The notes under the pieces were generated by a model. It did no database searches. It was not told the origin of the DNA and saw only the letters and a program-made list of their open reading frames with translations. A stretch of DNA of 64,000 bases from Candidatus Omnitrophota bacterium (GTDB taxonomy: Bacteria; Omnitrophota; Gorgyraeia; Zapsychrales; Zapsychraceae): assembly GCA_020429915.1 (NCBI GenBank), contig JAGQKV010000019.1:85727-149726 (forward strand). The letters are read 5' to 3'. Positions 25,548-56,733 of this stretch are shown piece after piece. The number at the start of each line of letters is the position of its first letter. Positions within the stretch are counted from its first letter, which is position 1. A program made the translations under genes and the position numbers.

Positions 25548-25621
25548 GGGCCTTTAGCTCAGTCGGTTAGAGCAGCTGACTCATAATCAGTTGGTCCCTG
25601 GTTCAAGTCCAGGAAGGCCCA
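25548..25621 (+). tRNA. tRNA-Met (anticodon CAT). Elongator-type anticodon stem. Could alternatively be tRNA-Ile2 (lysidine).
   Basis: Cloverleaf: acceptor GGGCCTT/AAGGCCC, D-arm GCTC...GAGC, anticodon loop CTCATAA, T-arm CCTGG-TTCAAGT-CCAGG, discriminator A. No encoded CCA. Confidence 0.85.
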
Positions 25622-26389: not shown

Positions 26390-26853
26390 GCCAAGGGGAA
26401 CTGCTCATCAACATTGACGGGGCGTCGAGCGGCAATCCCGGTCCGGCCGGAATCGGGGTGGTGATCCGGCAGGACGGCACGATCATCCACGAAATATCCA
26501 AGGCCATCGGTGAGGCCACCAACAATGTGGCGGAATACACCGCGTTGGTATACGCTTTACAGGAGGCCCTGATCCGACGGGCCGACACGGTCACGGTGAT
26601 CACCGACAGCGAGTTGGTGCACCGGCAGGTGACCGGAGAATACAAGGTCAAGAACGCGAATATCAAACCGCTCTTTGAACAGGTTCAGCATCTGTTGCGC
26701 GGCTTTAAGCAGGTGAAAATGAAACACGTGCTGCGCGAAGAAAACAAGGATGCGGACCGGTTAGCGACAAAATCGATCAAGTCTAAGCAGGCACAAGTGG
26801 TTGCCCCGTTGTTCGATAACCACGGGGAGGAAAGTCCGAGCTCCACAGGATGA
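26386..26853 (+). CDS. rnhA: Ribonuclease HI.
   Basis: TTG start overlapping the upstream stop, with a GAGGA RBS. INIDGASSGNPGPAGIGVV...EYTALVYAL...VITDSELV...DADRLA catalytic motifs. The 3' end runs into rnpB. Confidence 0.75.
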   Translation: MSQGELLINIDGASSGNPGPAGIGVVIRQDGTIIHEISKAIGEATNNVAEYTALVYALQEALIRRADTVTVITDSELVHRQVTGEYKVKNANIKPLFEQVQHLLRGFKQVKMKHVLREENKDADRLATKSIKSKQAQVVAPLFDNHGEESPSSTG

Positions 26854-27152
26854 TGCACCCAGGTAACGCTGGGCCCCGCTGTCAGCGGGAGGATTAGAGC
26901 TACAGTGACGATACTTGGCGATCGGTCGGCGACCAATCGCCTTGGGTGAAACGAGCAATCTCTGCATGGAGCAATGCTAAATAGGCAGAAACTTCGGTGA
27001 TGCTGCGCATCACCGTGACGAACTGATCCGGTTCGTTTGATCTGCGGGTAGGCTGCAAGAGTTCGCGGAGTGATCCGCGAAGTCAGTTGAATAACCACTC
27101 TTGGCGTTCTGACGAACGCCTTGCACTCAACTCGGCTTATGTCTGCTGTGAC
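26781..27152 (+). ncRNA. rnpB: RNase P RNA, bacterial type A (M1 RNA homolog).
   Basis: P4 5' strand GGAAAGTCCGAGCTCC (26828-) pairs with ACTCGGCTTATG (27130-), showing a compensatory CCGAG/CTCGG change. Also GGGTGAAA, GGGTAGGCTGC and GGTAACGC conserved blocks. Ends approximate, set by a putative P1 helix. Confidence 0.8.
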
Positions 27153-27294
27153 ACCGTTCCGGTTCAGGCCTTCGGGCCTGATACCGGATCCGTCATGATC
27201 CCCGGCCGCGGGGCGGAAAATTTAGCGATCGTTAAGATAAAGTCACACAAATAGGAAACGGGTTCCCTTCGAGGGACCATGGAGGAGGACGTCA

Positions 27295-50686: not shown

Positions 50687-51325
50687 ATGGAAACGTTGGA
50701 AGCACACGCCTCCGAATCCACTCACTATATCGACGATACCCTGAGGGCCGAGATCATTGCCCTGTCCAAAGACTTTAAACGTTCCTGGATCAGTCTGGGC
50801 CGGCATTTGTACGCGGTTTGGCAGGACAAACTCTACCGCAACTGGGGTTTTGAGAAGTTCGAGAACTATATCGAAGGGGAAGTGGGACTCAAAAAGAATC
50901 TGGCCACGAAGCTGCTGCGGTCGTACCTCTTTCTCGAGCAGGACGAACCCCAATACCTGGACGCCGAGTTTACCAACGAGCGGGACGCCATGAAAGTGCC
51001 CGGGTATGAAGAAATTAACTTTCTGCGCTTAGCCAAGCACAAGAAGGAAGTGAAGAGAGACGACTACGCCCGGATGAAGAAGGATGTGTTCGAGAAGGGC
51101 AAGAACGCGACGGTGATGCGCAAGGATCTGACCGCGTTGATGAAGGAACGCAAATACGTCGATCCGGATCAGGAGCGCGAAGACCGTCATCAGACAGCCA
51201 TCCGCCGGGTCGTCCATTCCCTGAAGAACTTCCAGAAGGATATGGAAGCCCTGCAGCTCATTCCCGCCGCCATTATGGACGACACCAAGAAATTGCTCGA
51301 CCGCCTGGAAGCCGAGCTGGATTAA
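50687..51325 (+). CDS. Hypothetical protein (first gene of the ATP-grasp cluster).
   Basis: 212 aa, charged and helical. No domain recognised. 2-nt gap to the next gene. Confidence 0.5.
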   Translation: METLEAHASESTHYIDDTLRAEIIALSKDFKRSWISLGRHLYAVWQDKLYRNWGFEKFENYIEGEVGLKKNLATKLLRSYLFLEQDEPQYLDAEFTNERDAMKVPGYEEINFLRLAKHKKEVKRDDYARMKKDVFEKGKNATVMRKDLTALMKERKYVDPDQEREDRHQTAIRRVVHSLKNFQKDMEALQLIPAAIMDDTKKLLDRLEAELD

Positions 51326-51327
51326 GG

Positions 51328-52359
51328 ATGCCGCTAAAATCTCCCGTTAACCTCGATTCGATCAGCGATGAGGCGCTGCTCGGGACCCGGGTCTGCGATC
51401 TTCCTGTTACGGTATCCGGGACCTGGCTGGCGGACTGCGTGGAGCAACTGTACCGGGAGTTGGCGGACAACGGTATTTTGTTCCGGCCAAAATGCTTCCT
51501 TGCCGACGAGTGGCTCACACCGGAAAATGAAACCTGTATCGGCATTCCTTTTTACCTGGCACATCCGCGATTGACCGCCTTGGAAAAACATTTTATGGAA
51601 CGTGCGGAAGGCGAGGAGCGGACCGAGTGCATGAAGCTGTTGCGACATGAGGCCGGTCACGCATTGTACTACGCCTACCGCATCCACGCCCGCCGGAAGT
51701 GGCAGCGTTTGTTCGGTTCGGCCAAGACCGAGTACGGTGAGACCTACCGCTACCGGCCCTACAGCCGCAATTTTGTCAGACATCTCGAGGGCCATTACGC
51801 CCAATACCATCCTGAAGAAGATTTTGTGGAAACGTTCGCCGTCTGGCTCACGCCCGGACTGGACTGGCGCAGCCGTTACCGCGGCTGGAAGGCGCTGGAC
51901 AAACTCAATTACGTGGATCGCCTGATGAATACCTTGCGCGGTCGTCCGCCGCGGCACACCAGCGCCCGTCAATATTGGCGGATCTCTACGCTGCGTTGCA
52001 CCCTGCGGCATTATTACAAACGCAAACGCCGTGCCATGGCCGAGGAATTTCCCGACTTTCATGATTCATTTCTGAAAAAGCGTTTTCTTTCGGGGACGGA
52101 AAACGGCACCGGATCGCAGCCCGCCGCCGCCATTTTGCGTAAATACCGGAAAGAGCTGGTGGACAACATCGCCCTGATTTCCGGAGAACCCAAACACTTG
52201 ATCCGGGAGTTGCTCACGGCCATTCAGAAACGCAGCCGTCAATTGGATCTCTCCACCGTTGACAATGAATCCGCCGTACTGCTGAGCATCTCCGCTTACA
52301 TTACGTCACTCGCCAAGAATTATCAGTACACCGGTCGCTACCGGGGAAAGAAGGCATAA
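51328..52359 (+). CDS. HExxH-motif protein (putative zinc-dependent hydrolase or regulatory domain).
   Basis: 343 aa. LLRHEAGHALYYAY contains HExxH, with a downstream acidic block HPEEDFVETFAVWL. Confidence 0.5.
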   Translation: MPLKSPVNLDSISDEALLGTRVCDLPVTVSGTWLADCVEQLYRELADNGILFRPKCFLADEWLTPENETCIGIPFYLAHPRLTALEKHFMERAEGEERTECMKLLRHEAGHALYYAYRIHARRKWQRLFGSAKTEYGETYRYRPYSRNFVRHLEGHYAQYHPEEDFVETFAVWLTPGLDWRSRYRGWKALDKLNYVDRLMNTLRGRPPRHTSARQYWRISTLRCTLRHYYKRKRRAMAEEFPDFHDSFLKKRFLSGTENGTGSQPAAAILRKYRKELVDNIALISGEPKHLIRELLTAIQKRSRQLDLSTVDNESAVLLSISAYITSLAKNYQYTGRYRGKKA

Positions 52360-52365
52360 CAGGCT

Positions 52366-53373
52366 ATGGGTAGACGAACAAAGGTCTTGATGTTGTTCAG
52401 CAGTCCGTATAACCGTCCGCGGGGATACGATTACGCCGAGGAATTCGCGGACCCCGATGACATGTATACCGAGAATGATGTCCATCGCGCCCTGCTGGAG
52501 AATAACTACGATGTGCGCCTGTTGGGAATTCACAATGATCTGGGAACTTTTTTCGAAGAGATCCGGGAGGATCGACCGGATGTCATCTTTAACCTGATGG
52601 AAGTCTTCGACGGAAAATCGCATTTGGAAAAGAATATCGCCGCCCTGTTGGAAATGGTCGGCATTCCATTTACGGGTTCTTCGTCCGACACGCTGCACCT
52701 GTGCAATAACAAGGAGCTGAACCGCAAGCTCTTTCGTTTTCACCGGATCAAGATTCCATACTTTCAAGCCTTTCACCGTCATCACAAGGTTTGGTTGCCC
52801 AGGAAAATGAGTCTGCCCTGTATCGTTAAACCATTGGCCGAAGAGGCCTCGCGGGGGATCTCCCAGGCCTCGATCGTCGACAGCGAGGAGGCGTTTGTGG
52901 ACCGGGTCCGCTTTATTCATGAGAAGATGCAGCAGGACGCAATCGGGGAGGAGTTTATCGACGGGCGCGAGCTCTATGTTACGGTCATGGGACACAAGAA
53001 GCTGACGGTTTTTCCGCCGCGTGAGATGCGTTTTGGTGAACTGCCGGAGGACGCACGCATCGCGACTTACAAAGCCAAGTGGGACGATCAGTACCGGGCC
53101 AAGTGGGGGATTAAGAGTGTGCATGTCGGCAAGCTTCCCGCGGGGGCCGAGCAGGAGATTGCCGAGGTCTGCAAACGCGCCTACCGCGCGTTGAACGCGC
53201 GTAGCTACCTGCGGTTCGATATTCGGCTTAACAGCGCCGGTCAGGTGTACATCATCGAACCCAATGCCAACCCGTGTATCGCCCGTGTTGACGAAGTGGC
53301 GCTCAGCGCGGAGAAGGCCGGGGTAGCGTTTTCCCGGTTGATCAGGAAGATCGTGCAGCTTGCCGTTAAATAA
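52366..53373 (+). CDS. ATP-grasp ligase of the D-alanine--D-alanine ligase-like family.
   Basis: 335 aa. Pre-ATP-grasp domain, PCIVKPLAEEASRGI, ELYVTVMG, and C-terminal FDIRL...YIIEPNANP Mg/ATP-binding motifs. Confidence 0.75.
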   Translation: MGRRTKVLMLFSSPYNRPRGYDYAEEFADPDDMYTENDVHRALLENNYDVRLLGIHNDLGTFFEEIREDRPDVIFNLMEVFDGKSHLEKNIAALLEMVGIPFTGSSSDTLHLCNNKELNRKLFRFHRIKIPYFQAFHRHHKVWLPRKMSLPCIVKPLAEEASRGISQASIVDSEEAFVDRVRFIHEKMQQDAIGEEFIDGRELYVTVMGHKKLTVFPPREMRFGELPEDARIATYKAKWDDQYRAKWGIKSVHVGKLPAGAEQEIAEVCKRAYRALNARSYLRFDIRLNSAGQVYIIEPNANPCIARVDEVALSAEKAGVAFSRLIRKIVQLAVK

Positions 53374-53525
53374 CTTACCCGCCTGCCGTAGTTATTTCCG
53401 CTTTCTCAAAATCGTAAATCTTACGGTTTCCCGTCGAAAAAATTATTTTAATCGCTTGATTTTGTCGGCATTATCCCAATAATAAAAAGTGTGTCCTTTA
53501 ACAATCTCAGTTAAAAGGAGGCTCC

Positions 53526-54722
53526 ATGACCGACCCGACGCAGATCCCCTTCCTGATTAAGCTCCTCGATGACGAATCACCCAACATTCAAAGCAAAGTC
53601 AAAAGAGAGCTCGATGCCTTCGGCCCCCTGCTGATGAGTGAACTGCGCAAGATTTCATTTCCGCTGTCCAACAGACAAAAGGAAAGTCTGGATCTGATTT
53701 TCGAACGCCAGCAACGGGCGCAGCTGCGTCGTTTGTGGTCGAGCTGGTACACGGTGGAAGGAGGGTATCCCCGGTTGGAGGCGGCCTTGAGCCTTATCAG
53801 CGACTATCTGACCGCCTATGATTACGACATCCGTCTCAGCGGTTTATTGGATGATTTGGCGACGCAATACCGGCGCAAGTACAACAGCAAGGATCCGCGA
53901 CTGCTCGCGCAATTTCTGTTTGATGATCTGGGCATGCAGGGAAACGATGAGGATTACTACAATCCCCAGAACAGCAATATGAACTTTGTCATCAACGAGA
54001 AACAGGGGATCCCCATCAGTCTGGTGAGTATTTACATGCTCGTCGGATACCGGGTGGGAATACCCATTGAGGGATGCCCGTTTCCGGGACATTTCCTGGC
54101 CCGTATCGAATTGTACGGCCAGAACGCGTTTATTGACTGTTACAGTAACGGTCAGCTAATCATGGAAAGCGATTTTCTCAAAGCCCGTGACGAGATCGCC
54201 GAAAACATCACCGATACCCTGTATGAACAAATCTCGACCGAGGCCATGATCCGCCGGTATCTGGCGAACCTGGTGCGAGCCTTCCAGATCGAGGAGGACC
54301 TGACATCCGCCAATTTTGTCGCCGGGCTGTTCGAGGACCTGGAATTCCGCATCGCCAACAAGACCTTCGAAACCATCACGCCGGATCAGATCATCAATTG
54401 CAGTGAACCGCGCTATCTTCCCGGGAATCTGGTTAAACACAGCCGCTACGGTTACCGGGCTATTGTCGTGGACATCGATCCGGAATGCCGGGCCACGGAC
54501 GAATGGTACTATGGTAATCAAACCCAACCATCCCGTGAGCAGCCGTGGTTTCACCTGCTGGTCCACGATTCGGAACAGGTCACGTATGTGGCGGAAAACA
54601 ATTTATTGCCGGATGAGTCCCGTCACGAGATCAAGCATCCGCTGTTATCCTATTTCTTCGTCCGCTCGGATGGAGGCGCTTATCTGCGCAACGAGAATCA
54701 GTGGCCGGAAACGGATTTTTAG
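53526..54722 (+). CDS. Fusion protein: N-terminal transglutaminase-like/SirB1-type domain plus C-terminal YccV/HspQ-like (hemimethylated-DNA-binding-type) domain.
   Basis: 398 aa. C-terminus VKHSRYGYRAIVVDIDPEC...WFHLLVHD closely resembles HspQ (RHSLLGYLGVVVDVDPEY...WYHVVMED). Confidence 0.65.
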   Translation: MTDPTQIPFLIKLLDDESPNIQSKVKRELDAFGPLLMSELRKISFPLSNRQKESLDLIFERQQRAQLRRLWSSWYTVEGGYPRLEAALSLISDYLTAYDYDIRLSGLLDDLATQYRRKYNSKDPRLLAQFLFDDLGMQGNDEDYYNPQNSNMNFVINEKQGIPISLVSIYMLVGYRVGIPIEGCPFPGHFLARIELYGQNAFIDCYSNGQLIMESDFLKARDEIAENITDTLYEQISTEAMIRRYLANLVRAFQIEEDLTSANFVAGLFEDLEFRIANKTFETITPDQIINCSEPRYLPGNLVKHSRYGYRAIVVDIDPECRATDEWYYGNQTQPSREQPWFHLLVHDSEQVTYVAENNLLPDESRHEIKHPLLSYFFVRSDGGAYLRNENQWPETDF

Positions 54723-54734
54723 TGATTTCAGGGC

Positions 54735-54763
54735 TTGACGGCCACATTTATGTGTGGTATAAA
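54735..54763 (+). promoter_or_regulatory. lexA promoter with an embedded palindrome (candidate SOS operator).
   Basis: TTGACG, 17-nt spacer, TATAAA. The spacer contains CCACA-N6-TGTGG (54742-54757), positioned for autorepression. Confidence 0.5.
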
Positions 54764-54770
54764 GTAGGCT

Positions 54771-55370
54771 ATGAACAGTCCCCGACTCACTAATAAGCAG
54801 AAAGACGTCCTCAAATACATTTACCGAAGTATCCGGCAAAACAAGCTGCCGCCCACCATTCGCGAAATCGCCCGCGAATTCGGATTTTCTTCCACAGGAA
54901 CTGTCAGGGATTATCTAAAAGCCTTGGTTTCCAAAGGTTACATCCGCATCACTGCCAACAAGTCACGGGCTATTGAGCTGGTCTCGGAAAGTCTGTTTTC
55001 GCTGCCAATTCTTGGCCGCGTGCAGGCCGGGTTGCCGACATTGGCCGTAGAGGAGATCGAAGGCTACCTGAATCTCGATGCCCTTCTGTTTGAGGAGGAA
55101 TCGGCCTTTGCTCTGCGGGTCCGGGGCGACAGCATGAACGGTGCCGGCATCATGCCGGATGACCTGGTCCTCGTCCGCCGGCAAAATGTGGCCCAGACCG
55201 GCGAGACCGTGGTGGCGCTCATTGACGAGGAAGCCACCGTCAAATACCTCCAAAAGCAAAACGGCGGCTATGTCCTGCAGGCCGCCAATCCCGCCTATCC
55301 GCCTATTCCGGTCGACGAAAACGTGTCCATTATCGGCAAGGTGATCAGCGTCGTCCGCCGTTACCGCTAA
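54771..55370 (+). CDS. lexA: LexA repressor.
   Basis: 199 aa. N-terminal winged HTH (LTNKQKDVLKYI...IREIAREFGFSSTGTV). Cleavage-site region. S24 peptidase motifs GDSMNGAGI and K in VVALIDEEATVKYL. Confidence 0.9.
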   Translation: MNSPRLTNKQKDVLKYIYRSIRQNKLPPTIREIAREFGFSSTGTVRDYLKALVSKGYIRITANKSRAIELVSESLFSLPILGRVQAGLPTLAVEEIEGYLNLDALLFEEESAFALRVRGDSMNGAGIMPDDLVLVRRQNVAQTGETVVALIDEEATVKYLQKQNGGYVLQAANPAYPPIPVDENVSIIGKVISVVRRYR

Positions 55371-55485: not shown

Positions 55486-56733
55486 ATGGAATCCGGTGGA
55501 AAATTGATCATGTTCCTCAGCCGGCATTTTGAGGAAATCACCTATGCCTTGGCCGCGCTGCTGAGCCTTTTTTTGGGCATGTATGTCATTTATCAGTTCA
55601 AGCGGCGGCCGCTGGGCGTGCAGGTGCGTTCGTACGTCGAGACCGCCATCGGATCGACGCTCATCTTCCTGTTGCTTTTCGGCAGCACCTTGATATTGGC
55701 CATTTATTGGGCCAACTACAAAAGCCCCTATATCCACTTCGATCTGTATGATTCCATCTCCCGGAATGCCAACTGGGTACGAGAGGATTTGACCATTTAC
55801 CTGGTCAACGACAATGAGCTGATCGCCTTATCATGTGACGGTAACCATCAGGAAGTAGTCTTTACCAGCGACGAGGAGCCCATCCGGCAGTTCGAGTTCT
55901 CGCCGCACGGCCGTTACATACTGGTTTCCACGTATAAAAAGTTGTTCATGATCGATACCGAGGAGAAGAAAGATTGGTTGGTCGATCAGGTCCAGTTGCC
56001 CGGTTCCGAGGAAGATCTGAAGGGATCGATCTCCGGGATCAGCTGGTCGCCCGGAGGGGACAGGTTCTCATATGAACTATCCCGTTGGTCGAATTTCGGG
56101 TCGCAGGCCAAGGTCTACATCTACGATATCAACGACCGTAGCAAGAAGTCGATTGACAGCCCCACCCGCCGGCTGGGTACGCTCTACTGGGACCTGGCCG
56201 GAGAGAATCTGTATTACCTCAAACAGGCTTCCAGTGAACTTGAGGAAAGGCAATTGGTATACAAGCTGAAGGTCTACCGTGTGGACCTGAGCGATCTTAA
56301 GGTTCATTTCGTGGATGATATCATGATGGAAGAGGAGAACTTTTCTCCGATCCATTTGTCATTGCTGGGGATAAAACTATATCAGCCGGAGCGTGGGTTG
56401 ACCTTCGACCGCTTGGGGAATCAAACCGTGCTGAAATCCCGGCAGGGTCACCTGATCGGGATCGACCGTTACAACTATTTCTTCTACCAAGGCAAGTGGT
56501 TCCGCCGACGTCTGTTCCGGGTCAAACGTGACGTAGACACGAGTAAGAAACAGACGATGGTCAACGCCTATGGCGAGCACGTGTTGCGTCAGATCCGGTG
56601 GACGCCGTCCGGCCGTTATGTGGTGATGGACCATAGTTACTGGGGCATTCTCATTATGGACCCGCGGCGCCAGAAGGTGGCCCAGATTTATCCCTATGAC
56701 GTCAATGTTTACGGCTGGTTTTCGGAAATTTAG
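55486..56733 (+). CDS. Membrane-anchored beta-propeller (TolB/WD40-like) protein, function unknown.
   Basis: 415 aa. Two N-terminal TM helices. Repeated FSPHGRY/WSPGGDRF/WTPSGRY blade motifs. Confidence 0.5.
   Translation: MESGGKLIMFLSRHFEEITYALAALLSLFLGMYVIYQFKRRPLGVQVRSYVETAIGSTLIFLLLFGSTLILAIYWANYKSPYIHFDLYDSISRNANWVREDLTIYLVNDNELIALSCDGNHQEVVFTSDEEPIRQFEFSPHGRYILVSTYKKLFMIDTEEKKDWLVDQVQLPGSEEDLKGSISGISWSPGGDRFSYELSRWSNFGSQAKVYIYDINDRSKKSIDSPTRRLGTLYWDLAGENLYYLKQASSELEERQLVYKLKVYRVDLSDLKVHFVDDIMMEEENFSPIHLSLLGIKLYQPERGLTFDRLGNQTVLKSRQGHLIGIDRYNYFFYQGKWFRRRLFRVKRDVDTSKKQTMVNAYGEHVLRQIRWTPSGRYVVMDHSYWGILIMDPRRQKVAQIYPYDVNVYGWFSEI

Follow-up and report, generated by a model that had tools for sequence, protein, structure and literature searches.

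A Candidatus Omnitrophota protein related to animal FBXO21 and its possible role as an adaptor in regulated proteolysis

The locus and the architecture of the protein

The DNA analysed here is a stretch of 64,000 nucleotides (nt) from contig JAGQKV010000019.1 of a Candidatus Omnitrophota bacterium (hereafter, the window), which among reference genomes is 99% identical to the Candidatus Omnitrophota metagenome-assembled genome sequence JACKFL010000006.1. At 53526..54722 (+), upstream of lexA, it carries the coding sequence of a protein of 398 amino acids (aa), referred to below as the target. The open reading frame (ORF) is genuine: it starts with ATG, encodes the peptides quoted in an earlier annotation made from the sequence (the original prediction), matches Pfam and NCBIfam models, has more than 100 full-length homologues and yields an AlphaFold2 model with a mean predicted local distance difference test score of 86.8 (predicted template modelling score, 0.73). 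A Shine-Dalgarno motif, AAGGAGG, can be read at 53515..53521 (+), 4 nt ahead of the start codon.

The target contains two strong and separate Pfam domains. The first, PF13369 (Transglut_core2; aa 107-246, 53844..54263, +), scores 109.9 bits (E 1e-31) against a gathering threshold of 23.5 and covers model positions 6-154 of 155. The second, PF08755 (YccV-like, an HspQ-type SH3-like beta-barrel; aa 297-383, 54414..54674, +), scores 79.3 bits (E 3e-22), over its Pfam gathering threshold, and its fold agrees with that of HspQ, whose structure 5ycq is the sole solved structure reached from the target by sequence. They are preceded by a single ARM/HEAT-like helical repeat (aa 2-45, 53529..53660, +), recognized from the match of the family profile to designed armadillo repeats and PP2A-A HEAT repeats in a profile search of PDB sequences, from conserved residues (L10, L13, L14, D15, D16, L29, G33 and L36) and from the model helices 4-15, 19-31 and 34-40. 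A conserved tail (aa 384-398, 54675..54719, +), which was delimited by alignments with homologues and with FBXO21, closes the protein. On the basis of the domain matches and of the N-terminal ARM/HEAT profile match, the target is a soluble, three-part protein, composed of ARM/HEAT-like helices, a transglutaminase-fold core with flanking helices, and a YccV barrel with its conserved tail.

Relation to FBXO21

The original prediction stated that the same two-domain combination occurs in the eukaryotic F-box protein FBXO21, which agrees with the literature (PMC10318531) and with direct collinear alignment to real FBXO21 proteins. For these alignments, an FBXO21-like fragment served as bait only, and the comparisons were made with the retrieved database proteins bearing source names, which carry PF12937 (F-box-like), PF13369 and PF08755. 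A real FBXO21 protein aligns collinearly with aa 131-395 of the target (E 2e-24), and a brachiopod FBXO21 aligns with it in both domains. More generally, three FBXO21 proteins match both domains of the fused bacterial proteins in collinear order, with per-domain E values of about 1e-8 to 1e-18, and some of the alignments extend back to approximately aa 48-70 of the bacterial family members. Judged by sequence, FBXO21 is the closest known relative of the target. In animal FBXO21, the substrate-receptor portion comprises everything that follows the F-box, and the target is its full-length bacterial homologue.

A transglutaminase-like domain with an incomplete triad

The N-terminal domain had been proposed to be of the SirB1 type. 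This holds at the level of PF13369, the family to which the N-terminal domain of SirB1 belongs, but not for SirB1 in the strict sense, as the equivalog model NF008188, with a cut-off of 391, gives only 21.8 bits and neither TPR_9 nor any other TPR family was found in the Pfam scan of the target. The PF13369 signature of the target consists of DYYxPxN, G161-x-P163, R176, F186-P187-x-H189-F-L, D204(-C205), G209, R244 and N248. Residue conservation was followed in 101 full-length homologues, in a curated alignment of 27 sequences and in a set of 81 sequences from about a dozen phyla, to which the counts given below refer.

In papain and in transglutaminase-fold enzymes, the nucleophilic cysteine is located at the start of the core helix that corresponds to helix 163-176 of the target. 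The motif found at the inferred nucleophile position is G161-I-P163, and Pro163, which opens the helix, is invariant (81/81). His189 (80/81) and Asp204 (81/81) are located on the next two strands. Hence the Cys-His-Asp triad of active transglutaminase or papain-like enzymes, for which the original prediction had proposed to look, is incomplete in the N-domain: proline takes the place of cysteine in all 81 sequences. The assignment of P163 to the nucleophile position relies on topology, on the G-x-[C/P] motif and on the literature, and not on residue-level superposition, because the profile search of PDB sequences returned no canonical transglutaminase alignment for the N-domain and matched only HspQ and ARM/HEAT repeats. 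Since three animal FBXO21 proteins and one SirB1-type protein also keep the G-x-P, FPxHFL and ID signature without exception, the incomplete triad is a family-wide signature and not a quirk of the target gene.

Two cysteines, C184 (54075-54077) and C205 (54138-54140, beside D204), flank the His189/Asp204 pair in the bacterial clade only. They are conserved in 67 and 78 of the 81 sequences, respectively, and are absent from FBXO21 and from the SirB1-type protein, in which position 184 is Val or Asn and position 205 is Ala, Val or Pro. Together they could constitute a redox site, a metal site or an alternative catalytic centre. Accordingly, one can imagine an active enzyme, a peptidase, amidase or transferase, in which the bacterial nucleophile has moved to Cys205 or Cys184, works with His189 and Asp204 and acts on a client bound to the YccV domain. 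The persistence of these four residues among the bacterial sequences, which come from about a dozen phyla, would fit such an enzyme, as would the fold of the N-domain, which transglutaminases, N-acetyltransferases, LapG and PNGase share. However, the canonical nucleophile position is occupied by proline throughout, and because FBXO21 and the SirB1-type protein keep the histidine and the aspartate with neither cysteine, the conservation of the pair is independent of a cysteine partner. Moreover, a residue beside the aspartate on a beta-strand normally faces the opposite side, and the FBXO21 domain is listed as an inactive transglutaminase-like domain (PMC10318531). Altogether, an active enzyme of this kind is unlikely.

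The YccV-like domain and its naming in databases

The original prediction of a C-terminal YccV/HspQ-like domain is confirmed by the PF08755 match given above and by the NCBIfam model TIGR02097, which scores 79.3 bits against a cut-off of 38.05. In contrast, the enterobacterial HspQ model NF010729 reaches only 31.9 bits against a cut-off of 135. The tail that follows the barrel keeps G384, Y386, R388, N389 and W393-P, is common to FBXO21 (Y-x-P-N...YPED) and lies outside every HspQ alignment. Compared with FBXO21, the C-terminal domain of the target aligns over core and tail (102-105 aa, 51 bits), whereas the alignment with HspQ is confined to the core (68 aa, 39 bits). These comparisons indicate that this domain is nearer to an extended, FBXO21-type YccV domain than to HspQ itself.

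In PGAP and IMG, several homologues of about 400 aa with both domains bear the automatic labels “heat shock protein HspQ” or “hemimethylated DNA binding protein”. For these two-domain proteins the HspQ label is misleading and probably an over-annotation, because the TIGR02097 equivalog fires on the C-terminal domain alone, and because the target is 398 aa long, scores below the NF010729 cut-off and has a tail outside the HspQ alignments.

Distribution of the family

A word-indexed search retrieved 1458 homologues, and more than 100 of the best 120 have both Pfam domains at a length of about 400 aa. When 1.84 billion cluster representatives were searched exhaustively with a profile, the relatives numbered 9486 at E <= 1e-3, including 706 at E <= 1e-30. 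Among the best 150 of these relatives, about 70 are of the fused form and the others consist of the N-domain only, with a length of about 275 aa. In reference genomes, the fused form is found in Omnitrophota, Planctomycetota (Ca. Uabimicrobium), Lentisphaeria, Eisenbacteria, Acidobacteriota (Holophagae, Acanthopleuribacter and Sulfidibacter) and FCPU426, and the N-only form in Bacteroidota, Ignavibacteria, Hydrogenedentota, Verrucomicrobiota and Fibrobacterota. The idea that the N-only proteins belong to split genes was discarded, as the DNA within 10 kb of them contains no separate YccV-like ORF. An origin in a defence system or a phage was likewise set aside: PADLOC gave no matches and PHROGs none for the target. 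The target is a typical member of a large, widespread and database-visible bacterial family without experimental study, whose cultured carriers include Acanthopleuribacter pedis, Sulfidibacter corallicola and Candidatus Uabimicrobium amorphum.

Genomic neighbourhood

The neighbours of the target were followed by tblastn in 80 related loci. The gene order of the window, i.e., a 212-aa protein, an HExxH peptidase-like protein, an ATP-grasp protein, the target, LexA and a 415-aa protein, was found in Omnitrophota-like loci only, and none of these neighbours stands beside family members in other phyla. The contexts of distant homologues are unrelated: as labelled by Pfam, the Uabimicrobium homologue is accompanied by a prolyl oligopeptidase, and the one in a Lentisphaeria genome by glycosyltransferases and bacillithiol genes. 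Unbiased clustering of 583 flanking ORFs revealed no meaningful cross-phylum partner. The single neighbour cluster to span phyla, a response-regulator receiver domain (13 loci), is generic and was judged to be due to chance.

Directly upstream of the target, a gene pair at 51328-53373 (+) encodes two proteins, one of 343 aa with the motif HEAGH (HExxH) and the other a Ddl-like ATP-grasp protein. The former is a borderline match to Peptidase_Mx (27.6 bits against a cut-off of 27), while the latter is far below the Ddl cut-off (121.9 against 243). As the two genes are either both present or both absent in related loci (except L013, where the contig ends and only the ATP-grasp gene is seen), they may form a two-gene peptide-ligase/peptidase module. 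Systems combining ATP-grasp enzymes with transglutaminase-like peptidases are an established theme of comparative genomics, and the target could in principle belong to such a peptide-ligation or modification system, its transglutaminase-like domain processing the product. In the window and in seven related loci (L001, L003, L004, L005, L016, L025 and L026, to which L013 adds the ATP-grasp gene only), the genes share a strand and are close neighbours. However, the pair is missing from L002, L006 and L007, where the target is still in place, and it is never found beside the family outside the Omnitrophota-like lineage. Furthermore, the end of the ATP-grasp gene and the start of the target are 152 nt apart, the intervening DNA is AT-rich and contains a promoter-like site, and the transglutaminase-like domain of the target lacks the cysteine used by such systems. 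Coupling to this pair is very improbable.

Further observations concern the outer neighbours. The 212-aa protein (50687-51325, +) occurs in eight Omnitrophota-like loci with 49-99% identity, where it always immediately precedes either the target or the ATP-grasp module; it has no Pfam, NCBIfam or PADLOC match and a weak PHROG match (E 0.0026, 0-stretch). The 415-aa protein (55486-56733, +), located 3′ of lexA, has an N-terminal hydrophobic segment and faint matches to beta-propeller-type Pfam families; it is syntenic in seven related loci with low identity (24-53% outside L001). Elsewhere in the window are housekeeping RNAs, namely a class A RNase P RNA (26784-27153, +; 149 bits) and a tRNA gene (25548-25621, +).

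Promoters, lexA and the damage response

The target has a promoter-like site of its own, TTGATT-16 nt-AATAAT, at 53456..53483 (+), which was identified by a consensus scan (9/12 matches) and looks sigma-70-like. Similar elements of the type CTTGnnTTT...TAATATAAA are found upstream of the target orthologue in L004, L005 and L007. An imperfect inverted repeat, TCCTTTAAC-N7-GTTAAAAGGA, lies at 53494-53519 and overlaps the Shine-Dalgarno motif; it could fold into a hairpin masking the ribosome-binding site of the target. It shows no obvious conservation in the upstream regions of orthologues.

The lexA gene (54771..55370, +; TIGR00498, 198.9 bits; Peptidase_S24 and LexA_DNA_bind) begins 48 nt downstream of the target. 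A promoter, TTGACG-17 nt-TATAAA, can be read within this gap at 54735..54763 (+) and is the promoter of lexA rather than of the target; in seven related loci, TTGAC(A) and TA-rich -10 elements occupy the same place. Between the -35 and -10 elements lies a 16-bp palindrome, CCACATTTATGTGTGG, at 54742..54757, with the consensus CCACAC-N4-GTGTGG. It is recognizable before lexA in six of the seven loci (L001, L003, L004, L005, L025 and L026), while L002 retains only the right half-site, GTGTGG. Within the 64-kb window it is the sole match at up to one mismatch; at up to three mismatches the window contains 15 matches, below the 22.4 expected by chance. This palindrome is a plausible LexA operator (SOS box) and a candidate for the one used in the phylum Omnitrophota. 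To our knowledge, it is unlike the classical LexA box consensuses.

The proximity of lexA had led to the suggestion that the target takes part in the damage response. A related explanation, which also draws on the name of the Pfam family, would make the target a DNA-binding or regulatory protein, recognizing hemimethylated DNA or controlling expression in a SirB1-like manner, and acting together with LexA. The immediate adjacency of lexA is kept in several Omnitrophota-like loci (L001-L004 and L026), and no terminator-like site was found between the two genes, so that read-through from the target into lexA is possible. Such read-through would not, however, put the target under LexA control. 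In the region upstream of the target (53374-53525) there is no CCACAC-N4-GTGTGG site at up to three mismatches, hence no LexA operator, itself a predicted element, lies in the target's own promoter region. In addition, LexA lies further downstream in L005 and L025 and is not adjacent in L007. The adjacency looks like a lineage-specific gene order and not a functional link. As lexA has its own promoter and palindrome, as none precedes the target, and as the adjacency is confined to one lineage, the damage-response idea finds no support. As far as the sequence indicates, the target is not part of the SOS response, and a DNA-binding partner of LexA is very improbable.

Proposed function

Wherever YccV-type domains have been studied, they act in choosing the substrates of energy-dependent proteolysis. 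HspQ is an activator of Lon and an inhibitor of ClpS (PMC6719616), POLDIP2/PDIP38 partners CLPXP (PMC7647994; 10.1101/2024.07.05.602318), and ClpF, according to work cited within 10.1101/2024.07.05.602318, partners ClpS1/ClpC. The YccV domain of FBXO21 is substrate-binding (10.1101/2024.12.13.628427; PMC4887211). The view of HspQ-like domains as protease modulators put forward in the original prediction is supported, as such domains recur in protease and E3 substrate selection.

Because the N-domain lacks the nucleophile and resembles the scaffold protein menin, and because YccV domains act in proteolytic substrate selection, we infer, with a probability of roughly 45%, that the target may serve regulated proteolysis as a recognition or adaptor protein without catalytic activity; of the readings considered, this is the best supported. 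A client peptide would be bound by the former active-site cleft (P163, H189, D204, R176, N248 and the DYYxPxN loop), by the YccV barrel or by both. The target would then deliver its clients to an AAA+ protease such as Lon or ClpXP/ClpAP-ClpS, or tune the activity of this protease.

Several points weigh against a proteolytic adaptor. The near-absolute conservation of His189 and Asp204, together with that of the bacterial Cys205 and Cys184, exceeds the apparent needs of a simple scaffold and would be compatible with catalysis or with the sensing of metals or redox state. That the conserved cleft residues cluster in space is deduced from topology only. No Lon, Clp or other gene recurs beside the family across phyla, and the assignment to protease adaptors is an analogy drawn through the YccV domain only. 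YccV was first described as a hemimethylated-DNA-binding protein. Finally, PF13369 proteins have no experimentally defined function in bacteria (PMC10318531).

A bolder version of the adaptor proposal would regard the bacterial proteins as the ancestral form of the FBXO21 receptor, a degradation adaptor predating the ubiquitin system, in which the cleft formed by His189/Asp204 and Cys205/Cys184 senses redox state or metal, or catalyses a reaction, and thereby gates the hand-over of clients to Lon or Clp. This scenario is speculative and quite unlikely.

If they were shown to be protease adaptors, the PF13369-YccV proteins would form a new class of bacterial adaptors and would provide a simple prokaryotic model of substrate recognition by the receptor module of FBXO21, which is being studied as a drug target (10.1101/2024.12.13.628427). 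As cultured carriers exist, the idea is open to experiment. The significance is modest, and the gene of the window itself brings nothing beyond its membership of the family.

Comparison with known systems

The proposed role would have its analogues in HspQ (activator of Lon and inhibitor of ClpS), ClpF (with ClpS1/ClpC), POLDIP2/PDIP38 (with CLPXP) and FBXO21 (in the pathway from the Skp1-cullin-F-box (SCF) ligase to the proteasome). HspQ/YccV, the heat-shock protein of E. coli and Salmonella that enhances Lon specificity and inhibits ClpS, is a single domain of about 105 aa, whereas the YccV domain of the target takes up only aa 297-383 of 398 and is accompanied by two extra regions. In addition, the alignments with HspQ stop before the tail (aa 384-398), which aligns with FBXO21. 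In POLDIP2/PDIP38 and in plant ClpF, the YccV adaptors of CLPXP and ClpC, the partner domain is ApaG/DUF525 (POLDIP2) or UVR (ClpF), whereas it is transglutaminase-like in the target.

SirB1/YchA (PF13369 and TPR_9) shares the PF13369 core of the target, with its G-x-P, FPxHFL, ID and R..NL signature. However, the target lacks the C-terminal TPR_9 region, has a YccV domain in its place and starts with the ARM/HEAT-like repeat. The AlphaFold3-predicted complex of YchA/SirB1 with uS11, reported in a 2026 preprint, was judged uninformative, as the relevant site is poorly predicted according to its authors. Menin, which combines a transglutaminase-like domain with a helical scaffold, shows the greatest resemblance to the N-domain of the target; with 6% identity, this is a fold-level likeness and no sign of a common function.

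FBXO21 differs from the target by its F-box, by an extra helical insert of about 70-90 aa between the two domains and by the absence of the bacterial Cys184 and Cys205. The target has no match to PF12937 or PF00646, hence no link to SCF, and carries the ARM/HEAT-like N-terminus instead. In both proteins, PF13369 is followed by PF08755 in the same order, with homology over both domains. They have in common the motifs DYYN, GIPIS (with proline at the nucleophile position), FPxHFL, IDxxxxG, R..NL and KHxxYxY, as well as DPxC, QP[WF], HPxxxx[YF]F and the tail Y-x-x-N...[WY]PE.
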